Shown here: positions 7,741 through 50,558 of the stretch, piece after piece
Layout: each line of letters opens with the position of its first letter
How positions within the stretch are numbered: the stretch's first letter is position 1
Source of the DNA: a virus
Taxonomy: Duplodnaviria > Caudoviricetes
Direction: 5' to 3' (one strand)
DNA: 55,802 nucleotides
IMG/VR virus record: IMGVR_UViG_3300011252_000208
Span: 1 to 55,802 of that record
The notes under the pieces: model-generated
Told to the model about the DNA's origin: nothing
Databases searched by the model: none
The model's input: only the letters and a program-made list of their open reading frames with translations
Program-made: the position numbers and the translations under genes

Positions 7741-7765
7741 AATCAAAACCAAACATTTGTTCGGG

Positions 7766-8674
7766 TTACGCTCCGGGTGAACCAAATACGCAACGTGGGT
7801 CCGAGAAACCAAATGAATAACGCTCACGCGCTTTAAAGCGCATGTTGCCTGTATCAAAATCTGCTTCCATGTTTGTACGCATGGGAGAACGCTCAAAGTG
7901 CTTGAAGCCATTTGGCGCGTCAGTTTTGATAAAGAACGCATCAGTATCGGTGAGGAAGTGGTTAATTGTATAACCCTCTGGCACCATACCCATGTTTTTT
8001 GTCGCGTTAATATCATTGTCAGCAGTGCCGGGACGCAAGGTCGATTCCAGCAGACGATCTGCAATGAACTGAAGCTGTGGTGGAATAATCAGCTTAGTGC
8101 CACGAAGGGCAATAATCATATTCCGCTCATCAACAAAGCCTGAAATGTCAATCAGAGCATTTTCAAGCGAAGTTTCATTGAGGTCAGCCGCAGTAGCTGG
8201 TTCGTTACGGAATGTGCCGCCTTGAGCCAGTGGGTGTACTGCAGAACAAAGCTCAACACCGTCACCGCCTGTGAATGCCGCGTTGAAAGCGTTGTTAAGA
8301 ACTGCAGCAGCCTTAACTTGCTTAGAATGCGCCATAGAACGGGCAAGTGCCTTGGTGTAACGAGCGCCAAGACGATCATACAGATTGTCTTCAATCGCCT
8401 CTTCAGTCAAAGCGAATGCAAGAGCTACAGTTTCATGTGTGTAACGAGCGGTGTACGCTTCGTTAGCATCATCAAACGACACCCCTGATCCTTCACTTTT
8501 AGTAGGAGCATTGCCAAAACCTGAAAGCATAACTTCTTCTTCGAACGCACGATCTGACGATTCTGTGTCGAAAATTTCTGCATGCTCATTGTCGTAGCGG
8601 TTGTACTCCATGCCGAACAAAGCATTTAGGCCCGGCTCAAGCTCTTTGACAAGTTGTGAACGAGAAATAGCCAT
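7766..8674 (-). CDS. Major capsid protein
   Basis: MAISRSQLVKELEPGLNALFG...FKARERYSFGFSDPR capsid pattern; after scaffold; RBS AAGGAG. Confidence 0.9.
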   Translation of the reverse strand: MAISRSQLVKELEPGLNALFGMEYNRYDNEHAEIFDTESSDRAFEEEVMLSGFGNAPTKSEGSGVSFDDANEAYTARYTHETVALAFALTEEAIEDNLYDRLGARYTKALARSMAHSKQVKAAAVLNNAFNAAFTGGDGVELCSAVHPLAQGGTFRNEPATAADLNETSLENALIDISGFVDERNMIIALRGTKLIIPPQLQFIADRLLESTLRPGTADNDINATKNMGMVPEGYTINHFLTDTDAFFIKTDAPNGFKHFERSPMRTNMEADFDTGNMRFKARERYSFGFSDPRCVFGSPGA

Positions 8675-8689
8675 AACTTATCTCCTTTC

Positions 8690-9265
8690 TTATGCCAGAC
8701 CTGCAGTGCCAGCACTGAACAGGTGGTTGTTGATTTTGACTATTACATTTGTATTAGCCGACGATACATCGTCATTCTCAGGGTCTTGAGAAATGTCGAT
8801 AGCTTTCAGAGCCAAGGCTGCTGTGGTTGCACCTGTTGATACTGCAAGTTCCATGCTGGAAACACCGCTTGCGGTTCGTCCAACAGGGTTATTGTCTACA
8901 ATATCAAAATTGCCAAACAAGTCGGCTACAGGCATTGCTGCATTCGCTTGAATTTCAAAGGTCGCACTTGGATCATCAATGACATTCGCAAAAATGTTTG
9001 TTCCAGTTGCGCTTGCAGGCCAATGGTTTGAGAATTTCACATCACCATTCGCATCCACATATTCACAGCCATTAAACACGCCCAAACACAAAGCATTGTC
9101 TCCTGCTGCAACGCGAGTAATTGTTCCATTTGTGTTGACTGTAACTAAGTCACCTTGGAAAATGTTCGTGTTGTAGCCAGAGGCAATACGATAACGGTTT
9201 TGTCTTTGTGAAGACAAACTCGTTTTTACTGGACGAAGGCCGAAAGGGGCGTCTTGATTCGCCAT
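8690..9265 (-). CDS. Capsid cement/decoration-like protein
   Basis: MANQDAPFGLRP...IFQGDLV...VIDDP..FEIQ; immediately upstream of capsid gene. Confidence 0.6.
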   Translation of the reverse strand: MANQDAPFGLRPVKTSLSSQRQNRYRIASGYNTNIFQGDLVTVNTNGTITRVAAGDNALCLGVFNGCEYVDANGDVKFSNHWPASATGTNIFANVIDDPSATFEIQANAAMPVADLFGNFDIVDNNPVGRTASGVSSMELAVSTGATTAALALKAIDISQDPENDDVSSANTNVIVKINNHLFSAGTAGLA

Positions 9266-9270
9266 CTTAC

Positions 9271-9732
9271 TTATCCTTCAGATTTATTCCGTGAGCCGAA
9301 GCTAACAGAAGATTTACGTTGTGGTGCCAGTTTTGGCATAAGGGCGTTGTTTTCCCGCATCCAATCGCGGTCAACAGCGTCCATTTGATTACTAGCCACT
9401 TGTGCAAAGTGTTGATTCCGCTGGTTTACCAATTCGGTAGGGATTCGGGCCAAAACCAATCCACCGACACCAATGGTGCCTGCGTTTCTTCCTTCGTCAA
9501 TGACGGGGCCAACATAATCAGGGTACTCTTCAGCGCGAACAAGTTCCCATCCCTCTTGCCGTTTCTTATGAACGTTAGTCTTATCATCATATTCCATGAC
9601 AGATTCACGAATCCATCTATGCTTATATCCTAGAGGTGGCTCTGGGGCGTCTAAAGCAGAACCCGGACGCCATTGTTGAATGCGCTCTGCGCTTTCCCGT
9701 GAATTTGAATCACGCGCTGACCTAGTTCCCAT
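9271..9732 (-). CDS. Conserved head-module protein
   Basis: LDAPEPP.GYKHRWIR...EGWELVRA...GGLVLARIP. Confidence 0.7.
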   Translation of the reverse strand: MGTRSARDSNSRESAERIQQWRPGSALDAPEPPLGYKHRWIRESVMEYDDKTNVHKKRQEGWELVRAEEYPDYVGPVIDEGRNAGTIGVGGLVLARIPTELVNQRNQHFAQVASNQMDAVDRDWMRENNALMPKLAPQRKSSVSFGSRNKSEG

Positions 9733-10674
9733 TTAATCGCTCCTACTTTCTAGTTTCACAACCTCTTTCGCATAAACTTCAAGAGGTATCCGCATTTTAT
9801 TAGCAAATGCGACTTGCCCCGGTGTTAGCTCCACCGATCTTTTCCGCCCAGATTTTAATGACCGTCCGTTACCAGACGCAGGCGTAACAACTTGGGCGTT
9901 CTGTTGTTTGGCCTGAAACTTGTGAGGCATTTCCTTGCGGATACGCTTGTCTATTTCAGAATAATATTCATCAGTAGTAGGGTCGAACCCTTCCTCACCA
10001 ACAATCTGATTGTGTATAGCAGTAGCCGCAGCCTTCATAACGTTGTCTTTTTCAAACCAATCGTTTTTAGACAACCACTTTTCCAACTTAGGGTCAGCCG
10101 CTTGTCTTTGCTGCTGTTGTGGTTGTTGCTGTCGTTGCTGCTGTTGCTCTGCCTCATACTGTCGTTGCTGTTCTTCACGCTTGGCCTTGGCAGTTTGCAG
10201 TCGAATGCGTTCCTTTTCGATAGCAACTTGTGACAATGCGGATTGCGCTTCAGCAACCTTTTCATAATCACCAGCTTCATGCGCTTCTGTCAAAGCGCGT
10301 TTGGCTTGCTGTTCCTGAGATACAACACGGCCCTCATACTCAGACCTATACCCTTGGTCTAACTGCTGAAGCCTAGCTTTCATTTGCTGGTTTTCTTGGT
10401 GAACTTGCTGTGCGTATTGAACTGCAGCTTCAGCCTCTTCTGTTGCAGCTTTACGCCGTGCAGTTAGCTGGTTAATGCGCTTCTTTACGCCTTCACTATA
10501 GCTTTCAAGTTCGTCATCGCCATCTGATGATTTACGAACTTTTGTTCGGGTTTCATCAGAATTACTGTCTGAATCAGCGGCTTCAACAGCAGATGATTCC
10601 TGATTGTCCTCTTCAAGTTCAATAGTAGTGCCGTTGAACTCTTCGTTTTCCATGCTTTCTTCAGCCATAGACAT
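9733..10674 (-). CDS. Capsid scaffolding protein
   Basis: Acidic coiled-coil, Gln-rich; YSEGVKKRI and LTPGQVAFA motifs; between portal and capsid. Confidence 0.75.
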   Translation of the reverse strand: MSMAEESMENEEFNGTTIELEEDNQESSAVEAADSDSNSDETRTKVRKSSDGDDELESYSEGVKKRINQLTARRKAATEEAEAAVQYAQQVHQENQQMKARLQQLDQGYRSEYEGRVVSQEQQAKRALTEAHEAGDYEKVAEAQSALSQVAIEKERIRLQTAKAKREEQQRQYEAEQQQQRQQQPQQQQRQAADPKLEKWLSKNDWFEKDNVMKAAATAIHNQIVGEEGFDPTTDEYYSEIDKRIRKEMPHKFQAKQQNAQVVTPASGNGRSLKSGRKRSVELTPGQVAFANKMRIPLEVYAKEVVKLESRSD

Positions 10675-11769: not shown

Positions 11770-14223
11770 TTATCCTGTATTGGCTTTTGTTGCATTCATC
11801 ACCGCAATTTCACGCTGCGTCCGTATCCTATCTTCTGCAATTCTGGTCTTATCCTCTAAGGCTGCTTCAGAAACATCAATGCGCTGTTGATTTACCAGAA
11901 TGTCATTCTTTTCTTTCTCACGTTCTAACTCCTGCTTGGCTTCAAACTCTGAAGACTTGCGCTGCATATCAGCCGCTTTTAGCTGCAACTCTTGATTGCG
12001 TATGTCCACCAGTGGATCAGACTGCTGTGGCGGCTCTACAGCTTGCGCCATGCTTTCAACCATGTCTGCAATCATAACCGCAGCTATCTGGTCGATCTGA
12101 GGCTTAATTTGCTGCATCATCATTTGCATTTGTTCTGGGTTTTGTTGCACTTCAGGCGGTATTCTCTCCATAACCTGTGCCTGTGCCTGCTTTTCAGCCA
12201 TAAGCCCTATATGCTCCTGTATGTGGCCCTGTAAGGCCACAATAGACGCAGGGTTAAGCTGCATGGCAGGCGTAGACATTACCGCCATATGAGCCTCTAT
12301 GTGGGCCTGATGATCTTGCTCTGGAAATGCCTGCAGTGGAACGCCCATAAGCGCATTCTGGTTCTCTTTAGCAGCATTAGCAGGCGGGGGCGGTGGCGGT
12401 GGTGGTGGCAAAATAGCGTCAATGTTCGTAACGCCCAAAGCCTCGTACATCTTGCGATACGCCTGATACAGTCCCATAGGACCGCCGTGTATCTCAGGAT
12501 TAGACTGCACCAACTGCAATTCGCTTTGCGCCAAAGCAATGCGCTGCGACATGGAAAAGATGTTCGGGTCTGAAACAGGCAAAACATCAATGCGTTCATC
12601 AAAGTCTTGCGCTTTTACTTCAGGCCCAACTTCTTTGGACACCATATATGGATACGGCTGTAAGTCTTGCGAAAATATCTTCGACAAAAGTTTAAATTCT
12701 ATCTTTTGCGAATAATGCAATCGCTTATGAATAGCGGACATAACCTTAGTGCCACGTTCCATAATCGCCATAGTGGTGCCAACGGGCGTTTCACCGCTCA
12801 TCTCACCAACCTTCATGTCAGCCATAGATGCAAACCTGCGACCAGCATCAACCAGCGTACCCAAAAGGTTATACAACGTGCCAGAAGGCTCTTTGAACGG
12901 TAATGGCATCAAAGACGCCTGCAGCGTTTGTCCCACTACATCAATGTCACGAAACTCTCCGGGCTGTAGTGGGCTGTCTTCATCACGAATACGCGCACCA
13001 CGGGCTTTAAACCCCGCTGGAAGGTTAGCCAACGTGCCAGCATCAATAAGCTGACGCAGGATCGACGTTGAAGCCATAGCCAAGCCGCCAATCATATGCG
13101 TTAGGCCCAAGCCGTAAAAACCCAAACCGGGCAAAAACTTGTAATGCACAAAGTATTTTTGCGCACGTTTCATAGGGTCATCTTCTGGATAGTTGCGACG
13201 AATAGAAAGAATTTCATTTGTATCTTCTAAAATGGTCACAATGTACGGTAGCTTTAACCCCGTAGGCTCACCGTCCATTCCAATGTCCTCAAAGCCCTCA
13301 AGGTCCAAATCAGTGTGGACCTCATAAAGAGTTAAATCTGTAGAAGAATTAGAAGGGTGTACGCCCTGTATATCGTTAATTGACTCCGTAACCTCACTCA
13401 TCTGGTCATCAGATGTACCATCAGTCGGAATATCTATGTCGCTGTAAAAACCCGCAAGCTGCAGCTTTCTAACCTCGTTAGAATCCATCGTAATACGGTG
13501 CGTAATGCGGGGCGAAGTTGCCAAGTCAGTAGCGCCATATGGCACAATTAAATCTTCTGCATGAATAAAGTTGCTAACAGCGCGTTGCTTTAGTGGATCA
13601 CGGTAAACCTTCTTAAAGGTCGATCCAATCACAGGTAAATAAAACAACATTTGATCCAATTCAGGATCGTATTCTTCCATTTCATACGTGATCTGGTAAT
13701 TCATATAATCTTTGACACGCTCTGCCTGCTTAACAAGCATTTCGCTCTGCGCACCAATAACCTGCGTTCTAACAGGACCATTTGCAGGCAAAAGCTCACG
13801 ATACGCCTGCGCTTGAAACTGCGTAACACTTTCTGCCAACAATGGATGAACAACGCCTGACGAACCCTCAAAAGGCTCTGTGCGCTCTTCAGTCTTCATG
13901 CCTAGAAATTCTAGCCCCTGCTTGTACGTGTCTTCCCAATCTTCGCGGGACGCCAAGTCATCATCAATAAGGCCAACCAAGTCAGAAACAATGCGCCCAA
14001 GAATGGCAGGATCAACAACATCAGCCAAATTACCATCAAAAGGGACTTCTGGTGCAATACCCATTCCATCGTCATAATCACCAACTACAGCACTGCCGTC
14101 ATCAAACTCAAATACACCGGGTTCTGGCGGCAATTCAGGAATGTCTGCCAAAACGTTTTCTTCGGGCAAAATAGGCATTTCAGGAACACCACCCGGACCA
14201 GAATCACGATCTATAAAAGCCAT
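11770..14223 (-). CDS. Portal protein
   Basis: 817 aa; SREDWEDTYKQGLEFLG, HPLLAESVTQFQAQAY, FLPGLGFYGLG; downstream of terL. Confidence 0.88.
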   Translation of the reverse strand: MAFIDRDSGPGGVPEMPILPEENVLADIPELPPEPGVFEFDDGSAVVGDYDDGMGIAPEVPFDGNLADVVDPAILGRIVSDLVGLIDDDLASREDWEDTYKQGLEFLGMKTEERTEPFEGSSGVVHPLLAESVTQFQAQAYRELLPANGPVRTQVIGAQSEMLVKQAERVKDYMNYQITYEMEEYDPELDQMLFYLPVIGSTFKKVYRDPLKQRAVSNFIHAEDLIVPYGATDLATSPRITHRITMDSNEVRKLQLAGFYSDIDIPTDGTSDDQMSEVTESINDIQGVHPSNSSTDLTLYEVHTDLDLEGFEDIGMDGEPTGLKLPYIVTILEDTNEILSIRRNYPEDDPMKRAQKYFVHYKFLPGLGFYGLGLTHMIGGLAMASTSILRQLIDAGTLANLPAGFKARGARIRDEDSPLQPGEFRDIDVVGQTLQASLMPLPFKEPSGTLYNLLGTLVDAGRRFASMADMKVGEMSGETPVGTTMAIMERGTKVMSAIHKRLHYSQKIEFKLLSKIFSQDLQPYPYMVSKEVGPEVKAQDFDERIDVLPVSDPNIFSMSQRIALAQSELQLVQSNPEIHGGPMGLYQAYRKMYEALGVTNIDAILPPPPPPPPPANAAKENQNALMGVPLQAFPEQDHQAHIEAHMAVMSTPAMQLNPASIVALQGHIQEHIGLMAEKQAQAQVMERIPPEVQQNPEQMQMMMQQIKPQIDQIAAVMIADMVESMAQAVEPPQQSDPLVDIRNQELQLKAADMQRKSSEFEAKQELEREKEKNDILVNQQRIDVSEAALEDKTRIAEDRIRTQREIAVMNATKANTG

Positions 14224-14774: not shown

Positions 14775-16253
14775 CTAATAATATTCTCTGCGTTTGCTGT
14801 ATCTGTATTCGTCTTCATCATTATAGTCAGTTTTGGTCACGATAAAACCACCCTGTCTAAATCGCAGTATAGCCTGTGTCATCGAATCCGCCAAGTCATC
14901 ATGTTCACCATTCGGAAAAGCAGCGCATTCTTCCATAACTTCGTCAGCAAAATTAGTGTCAGGACACCACACAATGCCGCTCTCAAACACAGGTGCGCAA
15001 GAATGCATGCGCGTAAACTTATCAGCGCCCCTGCTAGGTGTAAATGGCGTCACAGGTATGCCCATACGCCGTAATTCCTGCGTTAAAGGCATGCCAGAAC
15101 CCTTTTGCTCTATTAAAACCATGTCAGGGTCATACTCATGGTACATATCATTGGCCTGTTCCTTTAATTCAGGAAACTCCCAACGCCCCTTGACTGCATC
15201 CAACAAAATAATGTGTTCTTCATCGCTGTTTTCTTCAAGAAATATACCCCAAGTCGTAATTGCGCTGTAGTCAGCACGATCACCCTTACTAAAGGCCGTA
15301 TCGTAACTTTGAATGATGTATGAACAAACGGGTGGGTCTTCTTTTTCCCAAATATTCCACCATTCACGCTTAATAATCGCACCCTCTTCAGCAGTAGGGT
15401 TCTGCATGTACTGCGCATTCCATTTTGCTACAGGAATAGACGCCTTTACGCCCTCAAGTTCATCCAAACTCCAATATTCAGGCCAAAGTGACTCGCCAGA
15501 AGGCATAATTGCAGGAAATTCAACAATTTCCCACTTATCAGCGCCCTTTTCGCTCTGTTTTGCCAGAACTTTCGCAGTTAAATCACGAATAGACCACCGC
15601 GTCATAACAATAATTATTGCGCCACCGGGCTGTAAACGCTGTCTAGGGCCAGAAGTGTACCACTCATACACATTATCTAGCGCAGTTGTACTAAGCGCAT
15701 CCTGTTCTGAAACTGGATCGTCAATAATTGCCAAATCAGCGCCACGACCAGCCAAAGCGCCGCCCACACCAACCGCATAATATTCACCACCGCCGCTGGT
15801 ACTCCAACGTCCACTAGCCTTTGCATCAGATGCCAAGCTGACTTTAGGAAATACGTCCCTAAATTCATCTGAATCAATCAGGTTTTTAATTTTACGACCA
15901 AAACCAACCGCCAACTCCGCCGTGTGCGTGGCCTGAATAATCTTCAGGTCAGGTCTGCGCCCCATAAGCCACGTTGGAAACAAATAACTGGCAAATTCAG
16001 ACTTCGTATGTCTAGGCGGCATGTTAATAATTAAACGTTTTAACTTACCGTCAGCCACAGCCTGTAGTTTTTCCGCATAAATCTTGTGGTGCCTGCCCTC
16101 AATAAACTGAGGCCAAACGTGCTTAACAAACGACATATAATTGCTGCTACGATCATCTCGGTCTTCTAACGTCGAAAGCCGCTCCAACATGGGAGCGACT
16201 GTCGCTAACTCTTCCTCAGTTAGATATTGCGCAAAGTTAGTCAGGTCGTTCAT
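14775..16253 (-). CDS. terL: Terminase large subunit
   Basis: MPPRHTKS Walker A, IIDDP Walker B, YDTA and HDDLADSMTQA nuclease motifs. Confidence 0.95.
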   Translation of the reverse strand: MNDLTNFAQYLTEEELATVAPMLERLSTLEDRDDRSSNYMSFVKHVWPQFIEGRHHKIYAEKLQAVADGKLKRLIINMPPRHTKSEFASYLFPTWLMGRRPDLKIIQATHTAELAVGFGRKIKNLIDSDEFRDVFPKVSLASDAKASGRWSTSGGGEYYAVGVGGALAGRGADLAIIDDPVSEQDALSTTALDNVYEWYTSGPRQRLQPGGAIIIVMTRWSIRDLTAKVLAKQSEKGADKWEIVEFPAIMPSGESLWPEYWSLDELEGVKASIPVAKWNAQYMQNPTAEEGAIIKREWWNIWEKEDPPVCSYIIQSYDTAFSKGDRADYSAITTWGIFLEENSDEEHIILLDAVKGRWEFPELKEQANDMYHEYDPDMVLIEQKGSGMPLTQELRRMGIPVTPFTPSRGADKFTRMHSCAPVFESGIVWCPDTNFADEVMEECAAFPNGEHDDLADSMTQAILRFRQGGFIVTKTDYNDEDEYRYSKRREYY

Positions 16254-24079: not shown

Positions 24080-24110
24080 AGCCTATGCCGCTTTGTGGGA
24101 TTATGTCAAG
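24080..24110 (-). promoter_or_regulatory. Sigma70-type promoter with ATCCCACA box
   Basis: - strand CTTGACATAATCCCACAAAG upstream of 24047. Confidence 0.55.
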
Positions 24111-24338: not shown

Positions 24339-24361
24339 CCGATTGGCGTATGTCGCGCGGT

Positions 24362-26143: not shown

Positions 26144-26145
26144 TG

Positions 26146-34776: not shown

Positions 34777-35058
34777 TTATTCAATTCGCCAAACCCTGTA
34801 GCAAACCCAACTAGAGTCAATGATTCTGGCTGTTTCTGGAACATGTTCGGGTTCTGCCTCATAGTCTCTTCTTTTTATAGTTTTAAACCCATGTTTTTTA
34901 GCACACGTTTTAAAATACTCTGCACGGGAATTTGCGTGTGGGAACTCGCCATCTCCCACGAATAAAACACTGTCACCAATTTCCAAACGCGCAGCAATGT
35001 TAAGGGTTTTGCTATCGGCAGAAGGAATTGGTACATTTTTATCAATTTTTAGTGTCAT
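34777..35058 (-). CDS. Small protein, paralog of 29769..30014
   Basis: KIDKNVPIP...LEIGDSV...YRVWRI. Confidence 0.7.
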   Translation of the reverse strand: MTLKIDKNVPIPSADSKTLNIAARLEIGDSVLFVGDGEFPHANSRAEYFKTCAKKHGFKTIKRRDYEAEPEHVPETARIIDSSWVCYRVWRIE

Positions 35059-35852: not shown

Positions 35853-36006
35853 TTACCGTCTCCGTAATTTTTTTTGATTCTTGCAGTGCGAATATCAACA
35901 CTTGGACTTGTTCTTCTGTCAGGTCGCAGAACCGCGTACCCCAGCCGAAGTATCCAAGTATGAATGACAACTCTTCGATTGGGTCTTTTGCTGATTCGTA
36001 ATTCAA
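35782..36006 (-). CDS. Hypothetical protein
   Basis: ATGA coupling; ends SIPF. Confidence 0.6.
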   Translation of the reverse strand: MNYESAKDPIEELSFILGYFGWGTRFCDLTEEQVQVLIFALQESKKITETVNVGNLEESYYKSTGSWPSTSIPF

Positions 36007-36311
36007 TGGACTGTTCCCTCTTCTAACCCGAACAACTCTGCGGCTTTGTCGAATAGCCCCTCATCTGCTTCCGGGTTTTGAAATATAGCATCCGCTACTT
36101 TTTCTTTATCCACGAATATTTTTGCGCAGCCCCCGATACATAATTTTTTTGAATGTTCCATGTGGTCTTGCACTGCTTTTCCTGCGGCTTGGGTAACTTT
36201 TTCGCCATCGTTCCAATCTGACACAAACGCAACGATTTTGTATTCTTCACAGGCAAACTCGCTGTTGTCGTAAACTATGGCTGTTAGTTCAAGTTCTATC
36301 CGTGCCATCAT
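36003..36311 (-). CDS. Hypothetical protein
   Basis: Start moved to MMARIEL after AAGGAAG. Confidence 0.6.
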   Translation of the reverse strand: MMARIELELTAIVYDNSEFACEEYKIVAFVSDWNDGEKVTQAAGKAVQDHMEHSKKLCIGGCAKIFVDKEKVADAIFQNPEADEGLFDKAAELFGLEEGTVH

Positions 36312-36588
36312 CTCTTCCTTTTTTGATAGCCAACTCGCCACCACAGGCCATGTAACCACATGCGTCTACCCAGTTGTCAGGATTGCTTTTGTTAGATTTT
36401 AGCCGTGCTATTTTTAACAGCGTCATCATCACTGCAACGTCAGTAGATGTGAAATCCCATTCGTTGTTAAAGTAAATTTGCCACAACTCTGCTATGGAAT
36501 CAAAGTTGTCTTCCATATCACCGTGCGTGGCGTCACGATCTTTGGTGACGTACTGCTTTGCCGTATCTAATATTTCTGCCCGTTTCAT
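36289..36588 (-). CDS. DUF6378-like protein
   Basis: RAEIL..A...V..DR..THG..EDNF..IA.LW...LLKIAR...DNWVD.CGY. Confidence 0.75.
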   Translation of the reverse strand: MKRAEILDTAKQYVTKDRDATHGDMEDNFDSIAELWQIYFNNEWDFTSTDVAVMMTLLKIARLKSNKSNPDNWVDACGYMACGGELAIKKGRDDGTDRT

Positions 36589-40672: not shown

Positions 40673-40891
40673 ATGCCAAATCCAAAAGAATACAAGTCTG
40701 TTGGCCTTACAACAGAGGCATACGATAAGTTGAAATACGTTGCAGCGCAAGAGGACAGACCATTGGGGCGTCAGCTTTCAAGGCTGATTGACGTTGCTTA
40801 CTTGCAGATACAGAACGCCAAGCGTGGTTATAGACCTGCCAGCACAGGCGGCATTGGTTCTGCATCTACTGTCATGGAACTTGAAGACTAA
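40673..40891 (+). CDS. Probable ribbon-helix-helix regulator
   Basis: YKSVGLTTEAYDKLKYVAAQEDRPLGRQLSRLI; AAGGA RBS; promoter TTGACC-N17-TATGGT at 40611. Confidence 0.65.
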   Translation: MPNPKEYKSVGLTTEAYDKLKYVAAQEDRPLGRQLSRLIDVAYLQIQNAKRGYRPASTGGIGSASTVMELED

Positions 40892-43800
40892 AGCAGCCCT
40901 GCGCTTCCCAAACCGCCAAGTAAAGTAGCCGCCGCCGCAGGGTTTTGGGCGGCTCTTTCTCGTAGTGTCATCTGTTGTGCGTTACGTCTTATTTGTTCAA
41001 TGGGAGACAATGGTGCAGCAGGACCAGTTTTTCTAGGCGCGGGAGGTTCAAAATTTATTGCCGGGGGCGTTACAACTGGAACACTTGTTCGGCTTTCCGG
41101 GCCTTGAGAACCTAAACCTAAAGCTCTAGGCGTTACTTGTTTGGCTACTCTGCTGGCTCCACCTAAAGCTCGTCCTGTTCCTTGAACTACTTTACCTATT
41201 TTACTCGCAGTTGCGCCAGCATCCACACCCTGTTCACGCGCAGCATCGTCCAAGAATCCTAGAATTGCACGACCATTTTCTTTAGCTGTACCGCCACCCT
41301 CACGTAACTCTAAAAACTTTTTTGCAACTTCATGTCTGCCAAGTGCTTTAGCACCTAATCTCATTTGTGAAACACGCGCAATCGCAGTTAATGGATGTTT
41401 AAACACTTGCGCCCAAATGCTACCCGCAGCAATTGCACCCTCTTTTGTTACATCACCTAAAAACGAAAGTTCTTCCGCGAACTCATACAATGCTTTTGTT
41501 GTGTTCGGGTTTGCAGCATCATCAAGAATTGTTGATAGAACTTTTCTATCATACATACCTAAAGTTTCTTGTAACTTTCCTGCACTTTTTGCGCTGTCAA
41601 AAAGTCCACTATCTACGGATTCCATAATGTCTTGCAACACAACTTGGCGCATGTTGCTTTTCATTTGTGGATTATCCCCAAAAAACTCCATAATTCTGCT
41701 GGCTTCAGATTGAGATAGGTTAGGTGTTGTTAAAGCCTGAACAACTTCATCATAAGATCGTGGGCCTAGCTTACCTGTTTCCAAATCTTTTAACACACGG
41801 GCTTTTAACAAATCATCATAATCGCTGGTTACTTTAGCTATGTCATTAAGAGCATCCAACACGCTTGTTGGCGCTCCTGCTTCACTAGCCAATCTAATTT
41901 GTTCGGCTTTTACGCCGCCTCGCATATCTGACTTGCCTATAGCGTTGGCTAAATTTTGTATTTCGTCCCACTTGTCACCAAACAATTCTTTGCCCGTTCC
42001 TTTGAGGGACATGATTTTATTTCTAAAAGTTTTGCCGTTGAATTGCGTTGGGTCAAGTGGATCACGCCCTGCATCAGTTAAAGCGTCATCTATGAAGCTA
42101 CGACCTAACATATCCCGAACTTCATCAGGATTATCTACAGTTTTTAAAATGTTACGCAGTCTTTCTGGTTCATCTGGCTTGACCACTTTAGAAAATAATT
42201 TGTCAGATGTAGCCCGTGGTACATTACCGTTTAATGACTGCAAATCTCTTAAAGACCTAATGATACTCAAATCAACAAGTTTTTCAAAGGGTTCTATTCC
42301 ATCACGATAATGCTTTATCGCTATTTCTCTTTGTTTTGCTGCTTGTATTAATGACGTTTTATCAATCATAGACAGTGCATCTTCAGGAATATGATCCCCA
42401 ATGTTTTTACTCATTAAAACATTGTCTATGTTTCCTTTTATATCTTCTAATAATAACGCGGCTTTAGTTGATATTTTGCCGTTAAAATACAAGTTGTCGT
42501 TAATCGCTTTGCGCAAAACAGCCATTTCAGAAAAACTTGCTTTTCCCTGAGTGCTTCGCAAAAATATATCAATGTCTGTAGCCAATGGATCAGCAAGATT
42601 TCGCATTTCTGCGTTGTATTCCATTATTTTTGATTCCAAGGGCCTTACATTAAATAACTTGAATTTATTCCCTCTACCACCCGCAATCGGTGCCAGTATT
42701 TCATCAATAGCAGAAAAATTATCTGCCGCATCAGCCCCAAATTTAGAAAATGTATTTGTGATACGACCTAAAATTTCAGGATTCAAATCCACATTGTTTT
42801 TCATGGATTTTGATAAAACATCAACAGAACCATCTATAGCTCTTAGGTATGCTTGGTTGGCACTTTCTTGCAGCTTTTGAAATTTTACAAACTGGCTATC
42901 GCTGAGGAACATAACATCATCAGCTAACTGGCCTTTTGCGTCAGCGCGAACACCTTCAAGGAATTTATTTTTTTCAGCAAGCGCAAGCCCAAGGTTTCGT
43001 TCTCTACGATCTACAACTTTACCAGCGTTTTCCAAAAACTTTTGACCGTAGCCTAGTCGTTCTGCACCAAGGCTTTGCAGACTTGGTGTAAAATCTTTGT
43101 CTATTAACCTTCTAGCAACAGCTAAGTTTTCTTTGTTTACTTCCTCAAGAGCGCCTACACCTGACAACCTGCCAGCTACAGACTTGCCACCACCAATAAC
43201 CTTGCGGCCTGCCCCGATCACCGCAGCGCCTATAAGCTCACCACCAGCGCCTATAGCGCCCTCTATGGCTACGTCTTTAGCTATATCGCCTAACCCTTGC
43301 GTCTGCACGCCTAACAAGCCCTCTATGGACTCTTCTAATGCTTGACCCAAAGCACCACCAGCGCCTGCGCCAACCACAGCGCCAAGGCCAAAAGAAGGAC
43401 CACCACCAATGATAGCGCCTGCCACAGAACCTACAGTTTCTGGAACTATGCCTGCCAAGTCGGAAAAATCACGCATACTGAAGCCTTCATCTTCAATAAC
43501 AAGATTTTTACCAATTGGCTCCATGCCGCGTTTTTCTTGGCCCTTCTGGGTTAATGAATATCTACCAGCTTTATCTTTAACAAATCCATCAGACCCGACT
43601 AGGCTTTCTAATATGGCTTCACGATCACCGTCAGTTTCCGCAAAAGACAACAAAGACCGTAGCCTACCATCTGCACCAGTAGTGTAATCAAAGTTTTCAC
43701 GGTCACGGCCCTGTCGAATATCGACTAATTCTTTCAGGGTTTTTCCACTACCTAAGTTAGAAAAAGATAAAGACGCTGCTAAATCAGCGACCTCTTCATT

Positions 43801-43917: not shown

Positions 43918-45795
43918 CTAAGTTCCAGCAAGACGCTGTTTTTCGCGCTTGGCTAGTTCCGCTACATCCTCTTCAGACATTGGGCCATCATCAGGGGCTA
44001 CAGACCTACCTGTGTAACGATCCAATGTGTTTAAGGCGTCCAGAATATCACGTTCTTTCTTTATAATGATTGAGTTAAACAGGTCATTTAACTTAAATGT
44101 TATTTCGTCTGCTGTCCTTCCTGCGTCTAAATCACCCACAATTTGTGCAACTCTTGCACGGTCAGCATCCGAAATAGTTTTACCAGCTTCACCCAAAATT
44201 TCAGGAGCATTTTGTGCTTGCAATTTATCTAAGATAAATTTTAATTTTTGTGTTTCGGTAACATCTTCACGAAGGTTTACACCAAGAACTTCAGCTAAAT
44301 TATCTAGTTTATCAACACTAAATCTAAATATATTGACGCCTTCTGCTAACTCCATACCAGTTATAAATTTTTCTTTTGCTATATTTATATCTCTAGCAGC
44401 GTTTTGCAGAGCTTTGTATGTTTCATCTCCTGTACCTACTAATTTGTTTTCCACGCCAGAATTAGGCAAAGCTCTCCAAGTTTCTATGGTGAACAAATCC
44501 CCAGCACCCTCGCCAAATAGCTCCATTTTTCTAGGGGTTTTTGTGTCATATAGCGATTTTGCTTCGGGTGTTTTCATAGCTTCTGCAACAATGCTTGTGT
44601 AGCTAGACCCCGGAAGTATATCAAACTTTTCTGCAAACTCTGGGTTCTGCATAAGTTGTTGCAGTTCGCCTTTGCTAAGTGTTTCAAGACTGCCTTTGTT
44701 TTGCAATATAGATGAAACGGTGCCAGCAACACCATCACCCTTTGGTACTACAAAGTATTGGCTTAAAGCCGACATTTCTTTTTTGGCTGCTTCACGCTTA
44801 GTTTTATCTGATGACTCTGCCTCTAGCGCATATTTACCCGCAGCAATAACATTGTTACGCGCCTCTGCTTTAGCCGCAGTCAGTGCAGGCAGGGCTTTCT
44901 CACCAGCTTCGCCCACAGAACTTAACATTCTGCCAACGTTGAAGCCTTTACCAGCGCGGTTCTGCATCATGGACAGGCCCATAGCCATTAACGCTTGGCT
45001 AGTGTCGGGCTTGCCACTTATGTCAACGCCAGTGGCTTCCGCAAACTTTTTCTTGTAGGCTTCAATGTCACCCACTTTTGGAAGCTGACCTTCTGCGCCT
45101 TCTCTAGCCTGTGATATGTAATCTGTCATTGCTTGAGCGAACAGTTGTTCGGCTGGGTCATCACTCATAGATGGCATATCCAAGCTGGCTTCGCGGTTTG
45201 CGTCAGCTAACTCCTGTTCTTTTCTTTTTGCAATAATCATATCTTGCGCTCTGGCTTCATCAGACGCGCCATCCCTAGCGGGTGTGCCTTTGTTTCTGCC
45301 AGAAGTTCCGGGCGTTGTTTTGGTTTTGCCTTTTTCAAACTTCGGGTCTGTTTCTAAAAATCTATTCTTAAAGTCATCACGGGATTCACCGGGTTTGCGC
45401 TCAAACATAATGTCAGGAATATCCGTAGCTTCAAATATACTATTATCAGTAATACCTTCAGCAGCTATAGCTTCAGCAGCAGCAGACGGGCTTGTTAAGT
45501 ATTTTGTAGCAGATAAAGCAGCGTCTAACATAGGCGCTGGCAACCTACCACCTTCGCCGCTAAACATTCCCAAACCCTTTGTTATACCCTCTGTTAAGTC
45601 TTTAAATCCTATCTCTGGAAACCCGAACACATTGTTGAGAGAGTTTTTTTGCAAATCTTCAAGAGTTGTACCTTGAACCTTTTGAGGGACCATACCCAGA
45701 CCCTGCGCCAAAGCCCCACCTTTTGTCTGAGGGACACCCGCACCTTCTATACGCCTGCGGATTATCTCGTTATACGGTGCGGAAATGTCAGCCAT
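43918..45795 (-). CDS. Internal virion/ejection protein
   Basis: Helical; ALMAMGLSMM segment; GKTISDADR; position. Confidence 0.6.
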   Translation of the reverse strand: MADISAPYNEIIRRRIEGAGVPQTKGGALAQGLGMVPQKVQGTTLEDLQKNSLNNVFGFPEIGFKDLTEGITKGLGMFSGEGGRLPAPMLDAALSATKYLTSPSAAAEAIAAEGITDNSIFEATDIPDIMFERKPGESRDDFKNRFLETDPKFEKGKTKTTPGTSGRNKGTPARDGASDEARAQDMIIAKRKEQELADANREASLDMPSMSDDPAEQLFAQAMTDYISQAREGAEGQLPKVGDIEAYKKKFAEATGVDISGKPDTSQALMAMGLSMMQNRAGKGFNVGRMLSSVGEAGEKALPALTAAKAEARNNVIAAGKYALEAESSDKTKREAAKKEMSALSQYFVVPKGDGVAGTVSSILQNKGSLETLSKGELQQLMQNPEFAEKFDILPGSSYTSIVAEAMKTPEAKSLYDTKTPRKMELFGEGAGDLFTIETWRALPNSGVENKLVGTGDETYKALQNAARDINIAKEKFITGMELAEGVNIFRFSVDKLDNLAEVLGVNLREDVTETQKLKFILDKLQAQNAPEILGEAGKTISDADRARVAQIVGDLDAGRTADEITFKLNDLFNSIIIKKERDILDALNTLDRYTGRSVAPDDGPMSEEDVAELAKREKQRLAGT

Positions 45796-45805: not shown

Positions 45806-46912
45806 TCAAGTACGTTGTTGGTTAATACCCGAAAGGGCTGTGTACGCGCCTATGCCAGCGATAAACGGGTTGGTTCCCGGCTGGGCAGGGGCTGTCGTGT
45901 ATTGACTTGCAACACCCGCAGATGGAGTTCCTGATAGCGCACCGTAAGCGTAGTTGATTGGATACAACGCTTGCTCAGTGCCACGCATAGATTCTCTGCG
46001 CTGATTGTCCAAAACCCTCTGATCGTAGTCGCGCTGTGTTTGACCTAGCCCATACATAAAGCCCATGTCTGCGGGGGTCATGGCGCTATAAACCCGACCA
46101 ACATCTGCGCTAGTTCCGCCCAATGTGCCGTAGGACGATCCAGCGTCTACCAGCTTAGAACCAAGACCACCGACTGTTTGACCTAATCCGCCTGTAAGTC
46201 TGCCGCCTTCTAAGTTGCGCTTTTGTTCGGCTTCAAACCCAGACATAGCTGCGCCTAAAGACTTGTCGTATCCTTGAGACATCATATTCGCTATGGTTCT
46301 GGCCCTAGCATCCTGAATATTGCCTTGCGTTGCAGCCGCCTGCACACCCGCTCTTGATCCGCCAAATGCACCAGCCCCCACTGCCTGTGCATTTAATTTC
46401 TGCATGGCTTGTGCGCCTTGCTTGTCGATCTGCTTCATTGCCTCGTCAATAACATCTTGCTTGTACGGGTTCATATAATCCGTAACAGCAGTTTTTGGAT
46501 CAAAGGCTTCTGTACCGCTTTCAATGTACGTTGAGGCTTGCGGGAAGTAATCGTCATCTTCTGTGCCTAAAGCACCTTCAATCTCGCTGATGCCAGTATC
46601 CATAGTTTTAGATGCAGTAGGAAAATATTTGGCTGCTCCTGTAGCGTCTGTAAAATACGGTTGATACCTATCCATAAATGCCTGACGTTCTATGTCAGTG
46701 TCAAACGTATTGTAGATAGATTTTTCTAAATCTGTTTCAGGTGCGATTTTATACTGTGGTATTTTAAACAGGTCTGGATACGCTTCCGCGTCCACAAGAC
46801 CGCCAGTGAAAACACCGCCCGACTCTGTGCCGAAGATTTTATCTAGTAAGGCTTGTTCACGCTGCTCAATATATTCTGGACGGCGCTGAATGGTTTCATA
46901 GGTTTCACTCAT
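45806..46912 (-). CDS. Internal virion (DNA transfer/pilot-like) protein
   Basis: YMNPY..DVI and AGAFGGSR motifs typical of podovirus ejection proteins. Confidence 0.7.
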   Translation of the reverse strand: MSETYETIQRRPEYIEQREQALLDKIFGTESGGVFTGGLVDAEAYPDLFKIPQYKIAPETDLEKSIYNTFDTDIERQAFMDRYQPYFTDATGAAKYFPTASKTMDTGISEIEGALGTEDDDYFPQASTYIESGTEAFDPKTAVTDYMNPYKQDVIDEAMKQIDKQGAQAMQKLNAQAVGAGAFGGSRAGVQAAATQGNIQDARARTIANMMSQGYDKSLGAAMSGFEAEQKRNLEGGRLTGGLGQTVGGLGSKLVDAGSSYGTLGGTSADVGRVYSAMTPADMGFMYGLGQTQRDYDQRVLDNQRRESMRGTEQALYPINYAYGALSGTPSAGVASQYTTAPAQPGTNPFIAGIGAYTALSGINQQRT

Positions 46913-47997
46913 GTTCTAGCCTTTTTCTCTAGCGCATTTTGCATATCGTATGCTTTAGCAATACCTTGACGTTGGTTGCCATTGCCAAGACCTTTTATCG
47001 CGTCTTTCGTTAGTACGAACTCACCAGCCATTAGCATAGCGGGTACATCGTCTTTTGTGCCAGAGCCTTCGCTTGGCATAATCCCGCCGTTTCTACGTGG
47101 GAAATAGTCAGGCGTTGCTTCACCGCCGTCAGCTAATGTCCTCATGGTATTGATAGATGTTGGACTGCCAAATCCAAATGGACGATTGGCTCTTGCGATT
47201 ATTTCAGCGCGTCCATCGTCTTCATCATCGTCACCTTGTATTTTTGCTAGTAGCTCTGCACCTAGACCAAACGCCAGTGCTTCACCTGCTTTGGTATTTA
47301 ACAGCTTACCAAGGATGTTGCCTTCGTCCTTTAGGCTTGGGAATACAGATGATCCCAACTCGCCAATGCCCATTAGGTCTTCTTTAAACACACGTTGCGG
47401 CACGGGGGGCTTCACTGCGTCTATTGTTCTATCAACAGCATATTTACTAGCTTCAGCGCCAAATCCAGCAGAACCCGGACCATCAGCGCGTCCAACACTC
47501 TTTGTCACTCTCTTAGCCATATCAGCCATGTTTGCTTTATCTAGTGCTGCTTCAGACGCCATAGACGGTCCACCACTCGCCCCACCAAAGAGGTTAGCTA
47601 TAGATGTACCCTTACCCATATAGCCGCCTATGCCTTCGCCTAGAATGCCACCGATCAAAGCCTCGCGCAGTCCAGCCTTCTTACCTTGCAGCTTACGCAC
47701 TGCCAAAGAAGTCAACGCGCCTTTGACAGCGTTACTGCCAAGAGCCGTTGCAGCAAGAGAAGCTAACTGCGGCAAGAAAAACTCTGGCTGACCTGTGTTC
47801 GGGTTTATACTATTCTGCGGTGTACCAACCATATAGCGTCTAGGGTCAACGCCTTCTGACCTAATTGCAGATGCAATGCCTTGCGCCATCTGAGGGTTGT
47901 TCTGCATAACCTGACGCGGCACAACCATCTCGCCGGGTGCCACATGCGCCATGCGTGTATCGCCGTATCTGCCCATGTTCTGCATGCTGTTCATCAT
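46909..47997 (-). CDS. Internal virion protein
   Basis: GRYGDTRMAHVAPGE, SINPNTGQPEFF, LADGGE, GSGTKDDVPAMLMAGEFV. Confidence 0.65.
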   Translation of the reverse strand: MMNSMQNMGRYGDTRMAHVAPGEMVVPRQVMQNNPQMAQGIASAIRSEGVDPRRYMVGTPQNSINPNTGQPEFFLPQLASLAATALGSNAVKGALTSLAVRKLQGKKAGLREALIGGILGEGIGGYMGKGTSIANLFGGASGGPSMASEAALDKANMADMAKRVTKSVGRADGPGSAGFGAEASKYAVDRTIDAVKPPVPQRVFKEDLMGIGELGSSVFPSLKDEGNILGKLLNTKAGEALAFGLGAELLAKIQGDDDEDDGRAEIIARANRPFGFGSPTSINTMRTLADGGEATPDYFPRRNGGIMPSEGSGTKDDVPAMLMAGEFVLTKDAIKGLGNGNQRQGIAKAYDMQNALEKKART

Positions 47998-48087
47998 GTC
48001 GTAACCTCAGTTGTTTGCTTTTCTAGCATACAAACCCGAACATTTGTAGGGGTTATTGTTTTTTTTAAAAAAACTAAATTGTTCGGG

Positions 48088-49212: not shown

Positions 49213-49409
49213 TTCTCTGACCCCAACCATACTGCAAACGCGCCTGTCATAGCGCCGGTTACAACAGAAATTAGACTTGCCTGCTGTGTAGACAAATCGG
49301 GTTGTGTAAGCGCCCACTCAATGCACCGAACATAAACTACTGTCATGGTGAACATCATAAAACGTGGCAAAAGTTTGTATTCTAGTATTTTTTCAAAAGC
49401 GTTTGTCAT
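49209..49409 (-). CDS. Small membrane protein
   Basis: LPRFMM...W...PD...VSVVTGAMTGAFAVWL; two hydrophobic segments. Confidence 0.7.
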   Translation of the reverse strand: MTNAFEKILEYKLLPRFMMFTMTVVYVRCIEWALTQPDLSTQQASLISVVTGAMTGAFAVWLGSEK

Positions 49410-49663
49410 TCAAAGCCCCCTTGCAAGCCTTCCATTATTTCCTTAACAGTCGGACGCCGCTTAGTATCGGGTGAGTATCGGCATTGGAACTGTCTTGGAC
49501 ACTCCTTAAAACTAAAACTCGGATAGTGATAACCTATCGTATTATTTGGCCCTTTGTAAATACAAACCATTTCATTCTGTATTTTAGTGCGTTTAGCCAA
49601 CTGACAAGTTACAAAATCAGGACTAACCAAACCAGCTACAATTGCAGATGCAATTAACATCAT
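49406..49663 (-). CDS. Small Cys-rich exported protein
   Basis: Signal-like N-terminus; C..VCIY.G...CPRQFQC. Confidence 0.65.
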   Translation of the reverse strand: MMLIASAIVAGLVSPDFVTCQLAKRTKIQNEMVCIYKGPNNTIGYHYPSFSFKECPRQFQCRYSPDTKRRPTVKEIMEGLQGGFE

Positions 49664-49866
49664 GTATCTACCCCAACTTTACGACAAGTGAATTGCCCTG
49701 AAGCGGGTATCCCTGACATTATCATTATGTTTTCTACAACAGAACTGCCTTTTTGCATACCTTCAATTAAACATTCGCCTTTTGTTTCAAAGCGTTGATT
49801 GTTTTCCAACATAAATGAATCGCCGTTTATAAAAACAATAAGAAAATATAGAACCCAGCTATCCAT
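49660..49866 (-). CDS. Small membrane-associated protein
   Basis: Hydrophobic N-terminus; F.T..EC motif. Confidence 0.6.
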   Translation of the reverse strand: MDSWVLYFLIVFINGDSFMLENNQRFETKGECLIEGMQKGSSVVENIMIMSGIPASGQFTCRKVGVDT

Positions 49867-50345
49867 TACTGGGTGGCTAGGACAATTAAATACATGCCAC
49901 CACCAAGAACACTAATTATGCCTAGAGACAGTCCAGCTATGGCTGCATTATTTGCCAGTTGGCGTTTAGCTTCCATAGCTGCATATATGGTTTCTTCCCG
50001 TTCTTTTCGTATTTGCCTACGCATACCTAGCATTTCGTCGTAAGTGCCTAATCCAAAACGATAATCTAGCATGAATTTAATTTCTTTTTCTTTTTCAATT
50101 AATGTTTTTTTGCGGACAATAATGTCCATTGCTTCCTTTTCTATGTTTTCAGTGCCATGTGTTTTTTTGTCTAGCCAAGTGGGGTTTTTACGTTGGGACT
50201 CAGCGCGTGTAATATCTGCGACTGCGCCATACCACGTTCCTAACTGCTTGCTAACATCTTGAATCTCACGACCCGCGCCAACCAACATTTTGACACCCTT
50301 AAAGGCGGCGTTAGCTGTGGCAAATGCTGTGATTGGGTCTATCAT
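49866..50345 (-). CDS. Conserved phage membrane protein
   Basis: MIDPITA N-terminus, coiled coil, C-terminal TM. Confidence 0.75.
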   Translation of the reverse strand: MIDPITAFATANAAFKGVKMLVGAGREIQDVSKQLGTWYGAVADITRAESQRKNPTWLDKKTHGTENIEKEAMDIIVRKKTLIEKEKEIKFMLDYRFGLGTYDEMLGMRRQIRKEREETIYAAMEAKRQLANNAAIAGLSLGIISVLGGGMYLIVLATQ

Positions 50346-50360
50346 CGCGAAACAAAGCTC

Positions 50361-50558
50361 CTAACCCATTTTTATAAGTATGGTCACAAGCATTAACATG
50401 ATAGCGCCTGAAGCTGCCATTAGCGTTGTTTCAAGTCGCTTAACCCGAACAAATAATTCTTTAAACTGGATTCTGACTTCTGTTTGCAGCGCAACCATAT
50501 CTTTTTCCAACTTGTCTATTCTGCTATGTGCAGATTGTAATGTTCGTTCATCTGTCAT
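50361..50558 (-). CDS. Small coiled-coil plus TM protein
   Basis: AHSRIDKLE...VKRLE; C-terminal hydrophobic segment. Confidence 0.7.
   Translation of the reverse strand: MTDERTLQSAHSRIDKLEKDMVALQTEVRIQFKELFVRVKRLETTLMAASGAIMLMLVTILIKMG

Follow-up and report, generated by a model that had tools for sequence, protein, structure and literature searches.

An asymmetric 12-bp DNA word selected inside and between genes of an uncultured marine phage family, and its possible role at transcription-unit borders

Gene map and phage context

In this study, we describe a repeated DNA element in a 55.8-kb viral contig recovered from seawater metagenomes (IMG/VR record IMGVR_UViG_3300011252_000208; Caudoviricetes; completeness 98%), all 55,802 nucleotides of which were analysed and are referred to here as the window. 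The element is built on the 8-mer TGTTCGGG, hereafter the half-site, and we show that its unit, the asymmetric word A-n-TTGTTCGGGTT of about 12 bp, stands alone or forms a lopsided dyad, AACCCGAACAATTGTTCG-nn-TT, and is a strongly selected cis-element throughout a large family of uncultured marine phages. DNA of the window is present in 20 sequencing runs, all of them stored as contigs. Nearly all window genes are carried on the minus strand. A first minus-strand block holds tail and head genes, the portal gene, terL, an open reading frame (ORF) of 1818 residues, an amidoligase, a gamma-glutamyl cyclotransferase and a small terminase gene (terS) of the Terminase_2 type. It is followed by a 2.5-kb block of small plus-strand genes (28971-31435) and by a second minus-strand block of virion, lysis, recombination and replication genes, which ends with a Toprim/RepA-like primase-helicase gene. 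Profile searches of 50 larger or control-region ORFs (PHROGs and Pfam) recognised no DNA polymerase, RNA polymerase, integrase or repressor, a result that for integrase and repressor is not proof of absence.

The capsid protein and TerL are 59-73% identical to those of the HTVC023P-type pelagiphages and their relatives. The replication and terS genes of the window are not common to that group, whose members carry PolA, which the word-bearing family lacks, and the term-matched passages of a paper on HTVC023P-type pelagiphages contain no mention of such a repeat (PMC9599517). No cultured close relative was matched by a megablast search with 12 kb of the window or by a TerS protein search of a phage collection.

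Abundance and form of the repeated word

The half-site is the top enriched 8-mer of the window, with 17 copies on the plus and 10 on the minus strand. A previous sequence-only reading of this DNA had listed 27 half-sites, every one of which proved exact, against about 2 expected. The count stands and the expectation was slightly generous, since dinucleotide shuffles gave a mean of 1.15 copies (standard deviation 1.12, maximum 5) and never reached 27 in 100 runs. The longer forms are enriched as well. With at most one mismatch, the 11-mer TTGTTCGGGTT is matched 36 times (1.08 expected) and the 14-bp core CGAAC-N4-GTTCG 16 times (0.97 expected), 6 of the core matches being exact. An idealised 22-mer has no perfect copy anywhere in the window, and is matched with up to three mismatches at six places (26003, 26731 and 27703 with one mismatch each, 27815 with two, 7746 and 48033 with three) against 0 expected. 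These six account for most of the full or near-full palindromes proposed earlier, and the two palindromes placed inside genes (10535 and 31294) are exact 14-bp cores; those proposed at 27924 and 24274 are weaker, matching the 14-bp core alone with one mismatch. The description of the site as genome-wide was overstated, as 17 of the 27 copies lie in the 10 kb between 26015 and 36034. The copies are concentrated in the control and early region, in terS and just after it, and in the primase-helicase gene; 8 are intergenic, within 3,929 intergenic bases.

The consensus of the 27 window sites is A-n-T-TGTTCGGG-T-T, with a faint trace of a partner half, and in solitary copies the partner half is absent. 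Among 138 non-redundant dyads of the family the consensus is A-n-AA-CCCGAACAATTGTTC-G-n-n-T-T. The strong arm of these dyads, AA-CCCGAACAA, is complete, and the G residues of the weak arm are kept in just 35 and 51 of the 138, so that the dyad is lopsided and makes a poor hairpin. The best-kept part of the motif across the family is CGAACAATTGTTCG, and a clade of low G+C content (GC) uses the variant CGAACAATTGTTCGG followed by A, T or C. A promoter element with a partner box was considered and rejected, as the 25 nucleotides (nt) that flank the word on each side include no position with more than 0.7 bit. Around the dyads there are CCGGG boxes and arrays of CCCGA(N) hexamers, which share the core of the word.

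Selection on the DNA within genes

The copies inside genes occur in all three reading phases (as PEQ, PN or RT) and in both orientations, which places the signal in the DNA and not in the protein. When synonymous codons were shuffled within genes, as the sequence-only reading had suggested, the 19 in-gene copies compared with a mean of 2.58 (standard deviation 1.51, maximum 7) and were reached in 0 of 500 shuffles; shuffling the codon order gave a mean of 0.98 (maximum 5), again with 19 reached in 0 of 500. Having survived both codon shuffles, in three phases and on two strands, the signal cannot be put down to a protein motif or to codon bias, and both were rejected.

Codon use in homologs leads to the same result. 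In the primase-helicase gene, the codons that spell the word are used at NIPN(I/V) in 62 of 76 homologs, at RNPNT in 53 of 55 and at QPEQ in 50 of 51, where codon usage predicts 5-11% and neighbouring synonymous sites vary. In terS, the KSVRD codons spell the word in 84 of 155 homologs, against 1.3% expected. Of the primase sites, some persist from clade to clade and others represent gains specific to one clade. Together with the shuffles, this codon use supports the earlier proposal that retention of the site in coding sequence reflects a DNA-level signal and more than a single operator, and we regard it as among the clearest cases of a short DNA signal selected inside protein-coding sequence.

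Conservation among relatives

In relatives that share only 62-65% primase identity with the window, the half-site again ranks first among 8-mers. Three relatives with about 70% nucleotide identity, G001, G002 and G003, carry 22, 19 and 22 copies, respectively, and 19 of the 22 in G001 fall within 13 kb. Site positions turn over in part: of the window sites that can be aligned, G001 retains 4 of 8, against a background of 10.7%, and G002 retains 1 of 9, against a background of 9.3%. The exact 17-mer GAACAATTGTTCGGGTT is present in more than 120 viral contigs, of which 80 were fetched; their GC ranges from 0.34 to 0.57 and 68 of them carry terS. The word-bearing family is large, abundant, uncultured and marine, with a GC of 0.33-0.57, and more than 470 relatives of terS are found in one viral collection. 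Two capsid relatives with other terS and replication genes (023Pt_psg01 and DSL-LC04) have 0 copies, and no analogous motif was seen in Rhizobium phage RHph_Y3_1 or in a Wolbachia WO phage, which have related primases. A literature search for the word itself returned primers and unrelated matches only.

Placement of the copies

All window copies are listed in Table 1, together with the genes of the candidate DNA-binding proteins discussed below. Across relatives, the word reaches 1.9 copies per kb in terS, 1.43 in the primase-helicase gene (76 homologs) and 3.6 in a family of 78-residue early genes that includes the window gene 31199-31435; TerL, the capsid gene and Sak4 have no copies in these relatives. 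An array of 3-7 copies lies directly after the terS stop codon. At least one copy is found within 600 bp after that stop in 79 of 80 loci, a set partly selected by the motif itself. In a sample chosen by TerS similarity alone (80 loci, of which 7 were too short and 8 were duplicates, leaving 65 usable), at least one copy follows terS in 52 and at least two in 36. The spacing of neighbouring copies peaks at 100-119 bp (66 of 399 same-orientation pairs), and in the window it is 102 and 110 bp. The layouts of both control regions, at the 26003 dyad (region A) and at the array behind terS, are kept in G001 and G002; in the array, CCGGG and CCCGA boxes are interleaved with 8-mers 102-110 bp apart, and this arrangement is conserved in relatives.

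A subset of the dyads also has a defined position relative to terminators. A hairpin followed by a T-run stands just upstream, on the strand reading AACCCGAACAATTGTTC, of 26 of 157 non-redundant dyads, compared with 3 on the mirrored side, with a modal gap of 13 nt, and the dyad at 26731 of the window has the same terminator-then-dyad arrangement. Where an intergenic dyad lies between two co-directional genes, its strong arm comes first in the coding-strand sequence in 34 of 45 cases, against 11 in the opposite sense, with genes taken from crude ORF calls. In a relative with a GC of 0.34 (L099), four of five cassettes show the order intrinsic terminator, 13-15 nt, word, 34-95 nt, TTGACA-N17-TAnnnT promoter and gene; no such promoter or start follows the fifth copy. 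At least four small early cassettes of this relative have a near-identical promoter and 5' leader (TTGACA-N17-TAnnnT, then ATGATTCGCAA, then GGAG), and this promoter-leader is a standardised early expression unit.

Table 1. Copies of the word in the window, an associated hexamer array and the genes of candidate DNA-binding proteins
Position	Strand	Feature	Context
7746-7767	+	Imperfect dyad with full half-site (TGTTCGGG at 7758)	Intergenic, just 3' of major capsid gene 7766-8674 (-)
10535-10552	+	Exact 14-bp dyad core with full half-site	Inside gene 9733-10674 (-); conserved in G001
12561-12568	+	Solitary half-site	Portal gene
19677-19684	+	Solitary half-site	1818-residue ORF
24279-24296	+	Degenerate dyad, core with 1 mismatch, TGTTCGTG instead of GGG	ORF 24106-24609
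24613-25806	-	Amidoligase with C-terminal winged helix, candidate reader	Gene cluster 24613-27515
26003-26024	+	Dyad of control region A	Upstream of TTGAC-type promoter-like repeats (by eye) facing the amidoligase operon
26076-26144	+	CCCGA(N) hexamer array (TCGGG on coding strand)	Similar arrays at 27836-27866 and 27946-27980
26731-26752	+	Dyad	13 nt after strong intrinsic terminator 26771-26794 (- strand)
27069-27076	-	Solitary half-site	Gamma-glutamyl cyclotransferase gene
27242-27249	-	Solitary half-site	Gene 27210-27515
27703-27724, 27815-27836, 27925-27946	both	Phased array of three dyads	Directly 3' of terS
28041-28598	-	Small terminase gene (Terminase_2), candidate reader	Likely start M at 28547
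28304-28311	-	Half-site, exact match	Invariant KSVRD codons of terS
29611-29618	-	Solitary half-site	Early gene 29390-29671 (+)
31294-31311	+	Exact 14-bp dyad core with full half-site	Inside gene 31199-31435 (+)
32509-34719	-	Toprim/RepA-like primase-helicase, word hotspot and candidate reader	C-terminal winged helix
32880, 33399, 33656, 34083, 34286 (span 32880-34293)	+	Five solitary half-sites	Primase-helicase gene; all CCCGAACA on coding strand
34844-34851	+	Half-site	ORF 34777-35079
36027-36034	-	Half-site	Gene 36003-36359; conserved in G002
41502-41509	+	Half-site	1005-residue gene
45622-45629	-	Half-site	625-residue gene
47796-47803	+	Half-site	Gene 46909-47997
48033-48087	both	Imperfect dyad 48033-48054 and half-site 48080-48087	Intergenic pair with T-rich stretch between
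50444-50451	-	Half-site	Small ORF 50361-50558

Candidate DNA-binding proteins

The sequence-only reading had named a ribbon-helix-helix protein, a winged helix-turn-helix protein, the winged helix of the amidoligase, TerS or a host protein as possible binders. For the first two (encoded at 40707-40865 and 31457-31813), and likewise for a helix-turn-helix (HTH) protein encoded at 30309-30824, neither G001 nor G002 has a homolog, and these relatives retain 22 and 19 copies of the word, respectively; all three are therefore poor candidates. [quoted passage not shown] A host protein is less likely, given that the word is invariant at GC values of 0.33-0.57, that solitary half-sites are selected and that five bacterial genomes show no enrichment.

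The HTH of TerS is nearly invariant and is the most conserved DNA-binding segment of the family. A lysine-to-alanine change in its turn tracks the GGG-to-GGn variant of the motif, a correlation that is confounded by phylogeny. The C-terminal domain of the amidoligase was modelled with a predicted local distance difference test score (pLDDT) of 71 and has MarR/ArsR-type winged helices as best matches; its helix and wing are the best-kept part of the amidoligase. The C-terminal 120 residues of the primase-helicase were modelled with a pLDDT of 80, and their best PDB matches are winged helices of the IscR, MarR, ArsR and ORC2 types (Foldseek probability 0.9-0.99, E-values 0.03-0.2). Sequence comparison of the two winged-helix domains with solved structures gave nothing significant, and the Foldseek E-values across both are weak (0.015-0.2), so that the fold assignments rest on a consistent list of matches. 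The predicted recognition helix of the primase-helicase varies widely among homologs that keep the same word.

Proposed function of the word and alternative explanations

It seems possible, at a probability that we put at roughly 0.4, that the word is the site of a conserved phage protein which insulates or blocks transcription units in a stoperator-like manner. We infer that some protein reads the word, which is almost certain, that the phage encodes this protein and that it acts on transcription. A sequence-specific DNA-binding protein of the phage family itself would recognise the unit of about 12 bp, and because this unit is asymmetric, one molecule would occupy a solitary copy and two a dyad. 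Dyads would mark transcription-unit borders, after an intrinsic terminator and before the next promoter, and a protein bound there would prevent read-through by keeping RNA polymerase at the terminator or just behind it. The phased array of 3-7 copies would close the terS unit ahead of the long late operon, and solitary copies in early genes, above all in the primase-helicase gene, might serve as further blocks or auxiliary sites. This reading draws on the selection on the DNA, the restriction of an invariant word to one family, the asymmetry of the unit, its polarity toward terminators, the arrays behind terS and the precedent of phage L5.

The nearest system of known mechanism is that of the stoperators of L5-type (Cluster A) mycobacteriophages, which the passages on them in PMC9283540 describe as more than 20 asymmetric 13-mers that are read by a monomer and stop both initiation and elongation. 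The window resembles L5 in having more than 20 copies of an asymmetric 12-13-bp word fit for single-unit reading (27 8-mers and 36 near 11-mers) and in having sites at promoters and unit borders; the effect on elongation, established in L5, is proposed here. There are also differences, and several of them weigh against a stoperator-like function. In the same passages of PMC9283540, L5 stoperators function in a single orientation and lie in promoters or short intergenic gaps, whereas orientation in the window is mixed and 19 of the 27 copies lie inside curated genes (74 genes) and not in short intergenic gaps. The L5 reader is, moreover, the immunity repressor of a temperate phage, and the 50 window ORFs searched yielded neither a repressor nor an integrase nor any other sign of lysogeny, so that there is no obvious state to silence. 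Further points on this side are that orientation is not strict (160 versus 68 in the primase genes of relatives, 16 versus 7 in the window), with a bias seen only in the intergenic dyads (34 versus 11), that a recognisable terminator precedes only 26 of the 157 dyads, that many of our counts come from related sequences and are not independent events, and that the densest array is tied to terS, a position which fits a packaging site equally.

Packaging is indeed the alternative that survives best, although we consider it somewhat doubtful. The word would be the recognition element of the small terminase, the array 3' of terS and the copy within terS would form the pac region, with the DNA wrapped around TerS rings, and the dispersed copies would be secondary sites. 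The headful pac regions of P22, SPP1 and P1 are single loci with short repeated boxes in or beside terS, and the window likewise has boxes in and next to this gene. The linkage to terS is tight and conserved, both in the 79 of 80 loci and in the 52 of 65 loci of the TerS-only sample; the 8-mers that rank highest in the pooled sequence behind terS belong to the dyad core; a copy sits inside terS at the KSVRD codons; and 68 of the 80 contigs with the 17-mer carry terS. A spacing of 100-110 bp would presumably correspond to about one DNA turn around a TerS-sized ring. The conservation of the TerS HTH and its lysine-to-alanine change alongside the motif variant, confounded as the latter is by phylogeny, also favour packaging, as does a distant relative (TerS 29% identical) that lacks the word and carries, from terS to terL, 5 copies of a repeat of its own. 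A single pac site is the rule, however, and the word is found in the primase gene and at many unit borders as well. Packaging gives no account of the 3.5 copies per primase gene kept against codon usage, of the dyads at every small early cassette or of the polarity toward terminators. To our knowledge, the HTH signature is conserved in all Terminase_2 proteins whatever their pac site. Contig ends coincide with the word in 5 of 87 cases against 4.4 expected, which is a weak test.

A role in replication is distinctly less probable, and we think it unlikely. In that case the winged helix of the primase-helicase would bind the word, and the copies in its own gene and in the terS array would be two cis-acting origin regions. 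In phage P4, the octamer iteron TGTTCACC, which begins with TGTTC, forms two separated site clusters, ori and crr. The passages of PMC2777425 on the P4 alpha protein describe a primase-helicase-winged helix order that is the same as that of the window protein, whose C-terminal 120 residues are modelled as a winged helix. The primase gene is a constant hotspot, which keeps its density over 76 homologs although the sites change place and orientation from clade to clade; the arrays have TG/TA-rich tracts and DnaA-box-like TGTGGGATA repeats beside them; relatives with other replication modules lack the word; and a host replisome must be recruited, since no DNA polymerase gene was recognised among the 50 ORFs examined. 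On the other hand, homologs with the same invariant word differ in their recognition helix, and the main array is linked to terS and not to the primase gene, from which 4-8 kb of variable genes separate it. The spacing of 100-500 bp is unlike that of iterons, and unlike P4 the window has its sites spread over kilobases and inside genes. The window helicase is RepA/DnaB-like (AAA_25), that of P4 alpha belongs to SF3, and TGTTCGG is absent from 18 kb of a Wolbachia phage whose primase is 35% identical.

The LexA box of Gram-positive bacteria and cyanobacteria is CGAAC-N4-GTTCG, with a 5-4-5 layout. This is also the layout of CGAACAATTGTTCG, the best-conserved part of the motif, and raises the question of whether a LexA-type repressor of the host reads the inner dyad and ties the phage units to the DNA-damage state of the host. 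The excess of exact and near-exact cores agrees with this, and invariance of the word over the whole GC range would follow from a conserved host protein. We nevertheless hold it to be improbable. A dimeric repressor does not explain the selection of solitary half-sites with their outer GGGTT extension, and the dyads of L099, 34-95 nt upstream of the -35 box, do not overlap promoters. In bacterial genomes, the 8-mer is not commoner than a reversed control in four flavobacterial genomes and less than twofold commoner in Ruegeria (0.06 per kb); these five genomes all contain an 18-mer form of the element. They likewise give no support to a word spread through a host genome. The 18-mer is present in 29 bacterial loci, of which 13 carry the perfect 22-mer as a terminator; several of the others fall within ORFs. 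By comparison with such host words as Chi and the DNA-uptake sequences, the orientation of the word in the phage is mixed and its copies are clustered rather than spread.

Even less credible is a function as recombination linkers, with dyads at cassette borders supplying short homology for the shuffling of early gene cassettes, for which the promoter-stem-loop cassettes of T4-type phages are an analog. The region from terS to the primase gene is highly mosaic among the window, G001 and G002, the small genes of L099 are each bracketed by a dyad, and passages of PMC4351075 report that recombination at the Cluster O repeat made insertions and deletions; the synonymous-site copies in conserved genes, the phased arrays and the invariance over wide divergence are left unexplained.

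That the dyads are simply RNA hairpins, as intrinsic terminators or other stem-loops, hardly deserves consideration: a perfect 22-mer with A and T tracts, AACCCGAACAATTGTTCGGGTT, is a bidirectional terminator in bacterial genomes (13 of 29 loci, mostly Flavobacteriaceae) and a terminator scan flagged the window dyads as weak candidates, but the outer pairs of the weak arm are not kept in the 138 phage dyads, whose stem of only 5-6 bp is not the stable G+C-rich paired stem with a T-run of an intrinsic terminator, the window dyads fold as RNA at about -8 kcal/mol (z -0.95 to -1.9), far weaker than the terminator beside the 26731 dyad, and solitary half-sites cannot pair.

Comparison with the Cluster O repeats

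The closest described case of a repeat of this kind is the 17-bp dyad of the Cluster O mycobacteriophages, Corndog and its relatives (5'-TGTTCGGNNNCCGAACA; PMC4351075). The passages of that paper on the repeat report 34 copies in Corndog, a number confirmed by our own count, about one-third of them in genes and with a higher density in one genome arm; these passages assign the repeats no function, and a role in transcription initiation was judged unlikely by the authors. No later work explaining the repeats was found in literature listings. The window shares with Cluster O an identical 7-nt half-site (TGTTCGG / CCGAACA) and a similar abundance (27 versus 34 copies), with copies concentrated toward one arm in each, and neither phage shows an integrase or other sign of lysogeny. 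In contrast, hosts and phage types are unrelated, the order of the half-sites is opposite (TGTTCGG-N3-CCGAACA in Cluster O, CCGAACA-N2-TGTTCGG in the window phage), and Corndog copies are nearly all perfect dyads, whereas those of the window are mostly solitary with the GGGTT extension. Corndog has 0 copies of the window dyad geometry, and a tblastn search of all window ORFs against Corndog gave nothing below E = 0.002. Beyond its 34 dyads (68 half-sites), the Corndog sequence (L326 and L327) contains 26 solitary TGTTCGG / CCGAACA 7-mers, compared with about 8 expected from a rough base-composition estimate, and these solitary half-sites may also be selected.

It is conceivable, though on balance we regard it as unlikely, that the presence of TGTTCGG in two unrelated lineages marks a widespread monomer-binding module by which phages read DNA. 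In the family of the window, such a module would act as a protein-assisted terminator or insulator, placed at a fixed distance of 11-13 nt behind intrinsic terminators and in phased arrays, so as to split the genome into units that are timed, and its reader could be a winged-helix enzyme such as the amidoligase. Whatever its reader, the word gives a handle on how expression, packaging or replication is ordered in phages without a polymerase or repressor of their own, as it offers three conserved DNA-binding modules and one defined 12-bp target; the link to Cluster O adds a cultured and tractable system in which the same question has stood since 2015.

Additional observations

Other repeats accompany the word in its control regions. 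The CCCGA(N) arrays follow closely on the stop codons of terS and of an 81-residue gene, and both G001 and G002 conserve them. Seen from the coding strand, these are TCGGGG repeats with G-runs 2-3 nt apart, which could form G-quadruplexes. Another repeat, TTACCGTAA (often TACCGTGCTTACCGTAAA), is present in five or more copies at 28640-28850, in the divergent control region that leads from terS to the plus-strand early block, and is conserved in relatives. A 52-residue ORF at 28631-28789 was rejected as a gene, being merely the translation of these repeats; this translation is found by tblastn in 17-22 loci. A direct repeat, ATCCCACA-nn-ATCCCACA, at 27550-27575 and 28588-28597 abuts a TTGACA -35 box on the minus strand. 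It reads TGTGGGAT on the minus strand, which we take to resemble a DnaA box lengthened by one base. The repeat is conserved in both G001 and G002, and the same box is also seen beside the region A dyad of relatives. Between the region A dyad and the amidoligase promoter there are three direct repeats of 20-21 bp, CCATTnGTCAAyTTTyAAA (25937-25996), each of which contains TTGAC on the minus strand, and these look like tandem promoter-like or activator sites.

With regard to genes and RNAs of the window, the 1818-residue ORF (16250-21706, minus strand), just upstream of TerL, belongs to no PHROG or Pfam family and has no homolog in G001 or G002. The Rfam Mu-gpT-DE RNA (RF03012; gathering score 49) is predicted with 64.6 bits at 7631-7683 on the minus strand, a position immediately downstream of both the 7746 dyad and the major capsid gene. 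The gene cluster at 24613-27515 encodes the amidoligase with its C-terminal winged helix, a conserved acidic protein of 81 residues, the gamma-glutamyl cyclotransferase and a Kyano_Gp96-like protein; the fusion of an amidoligase to a DNA-binding domain may represent a bifunctional enzyme-regulator or a DNA-targeted enzyme.

Among the other genomes, phage 023Pt_psg01 (L089, 15431-17839) has an unrelated repeat of about 30 bp ending in GGGCCCACCC-n-CCCC, in five same-strand copies in the terS-terL gaps. This phage also contains the Escherichia coli Chi octamer GCTGGTGG 9 times, against 0.3 expected, an excess that probably comes from glycine-rich coding repeats. In Flavobacteriaceae, AACCCGAACAATTGTTCGGGTT is conserved as a terminator in L224, L225, L230, L231, L234, L238, L242 and L245, and in L225, L230, L231, L238, L242 and L245 it follows, as judged by eye, an apparent tRNA- or tmRNA-type 3' end (GGTTCGATTCC...CCAC).

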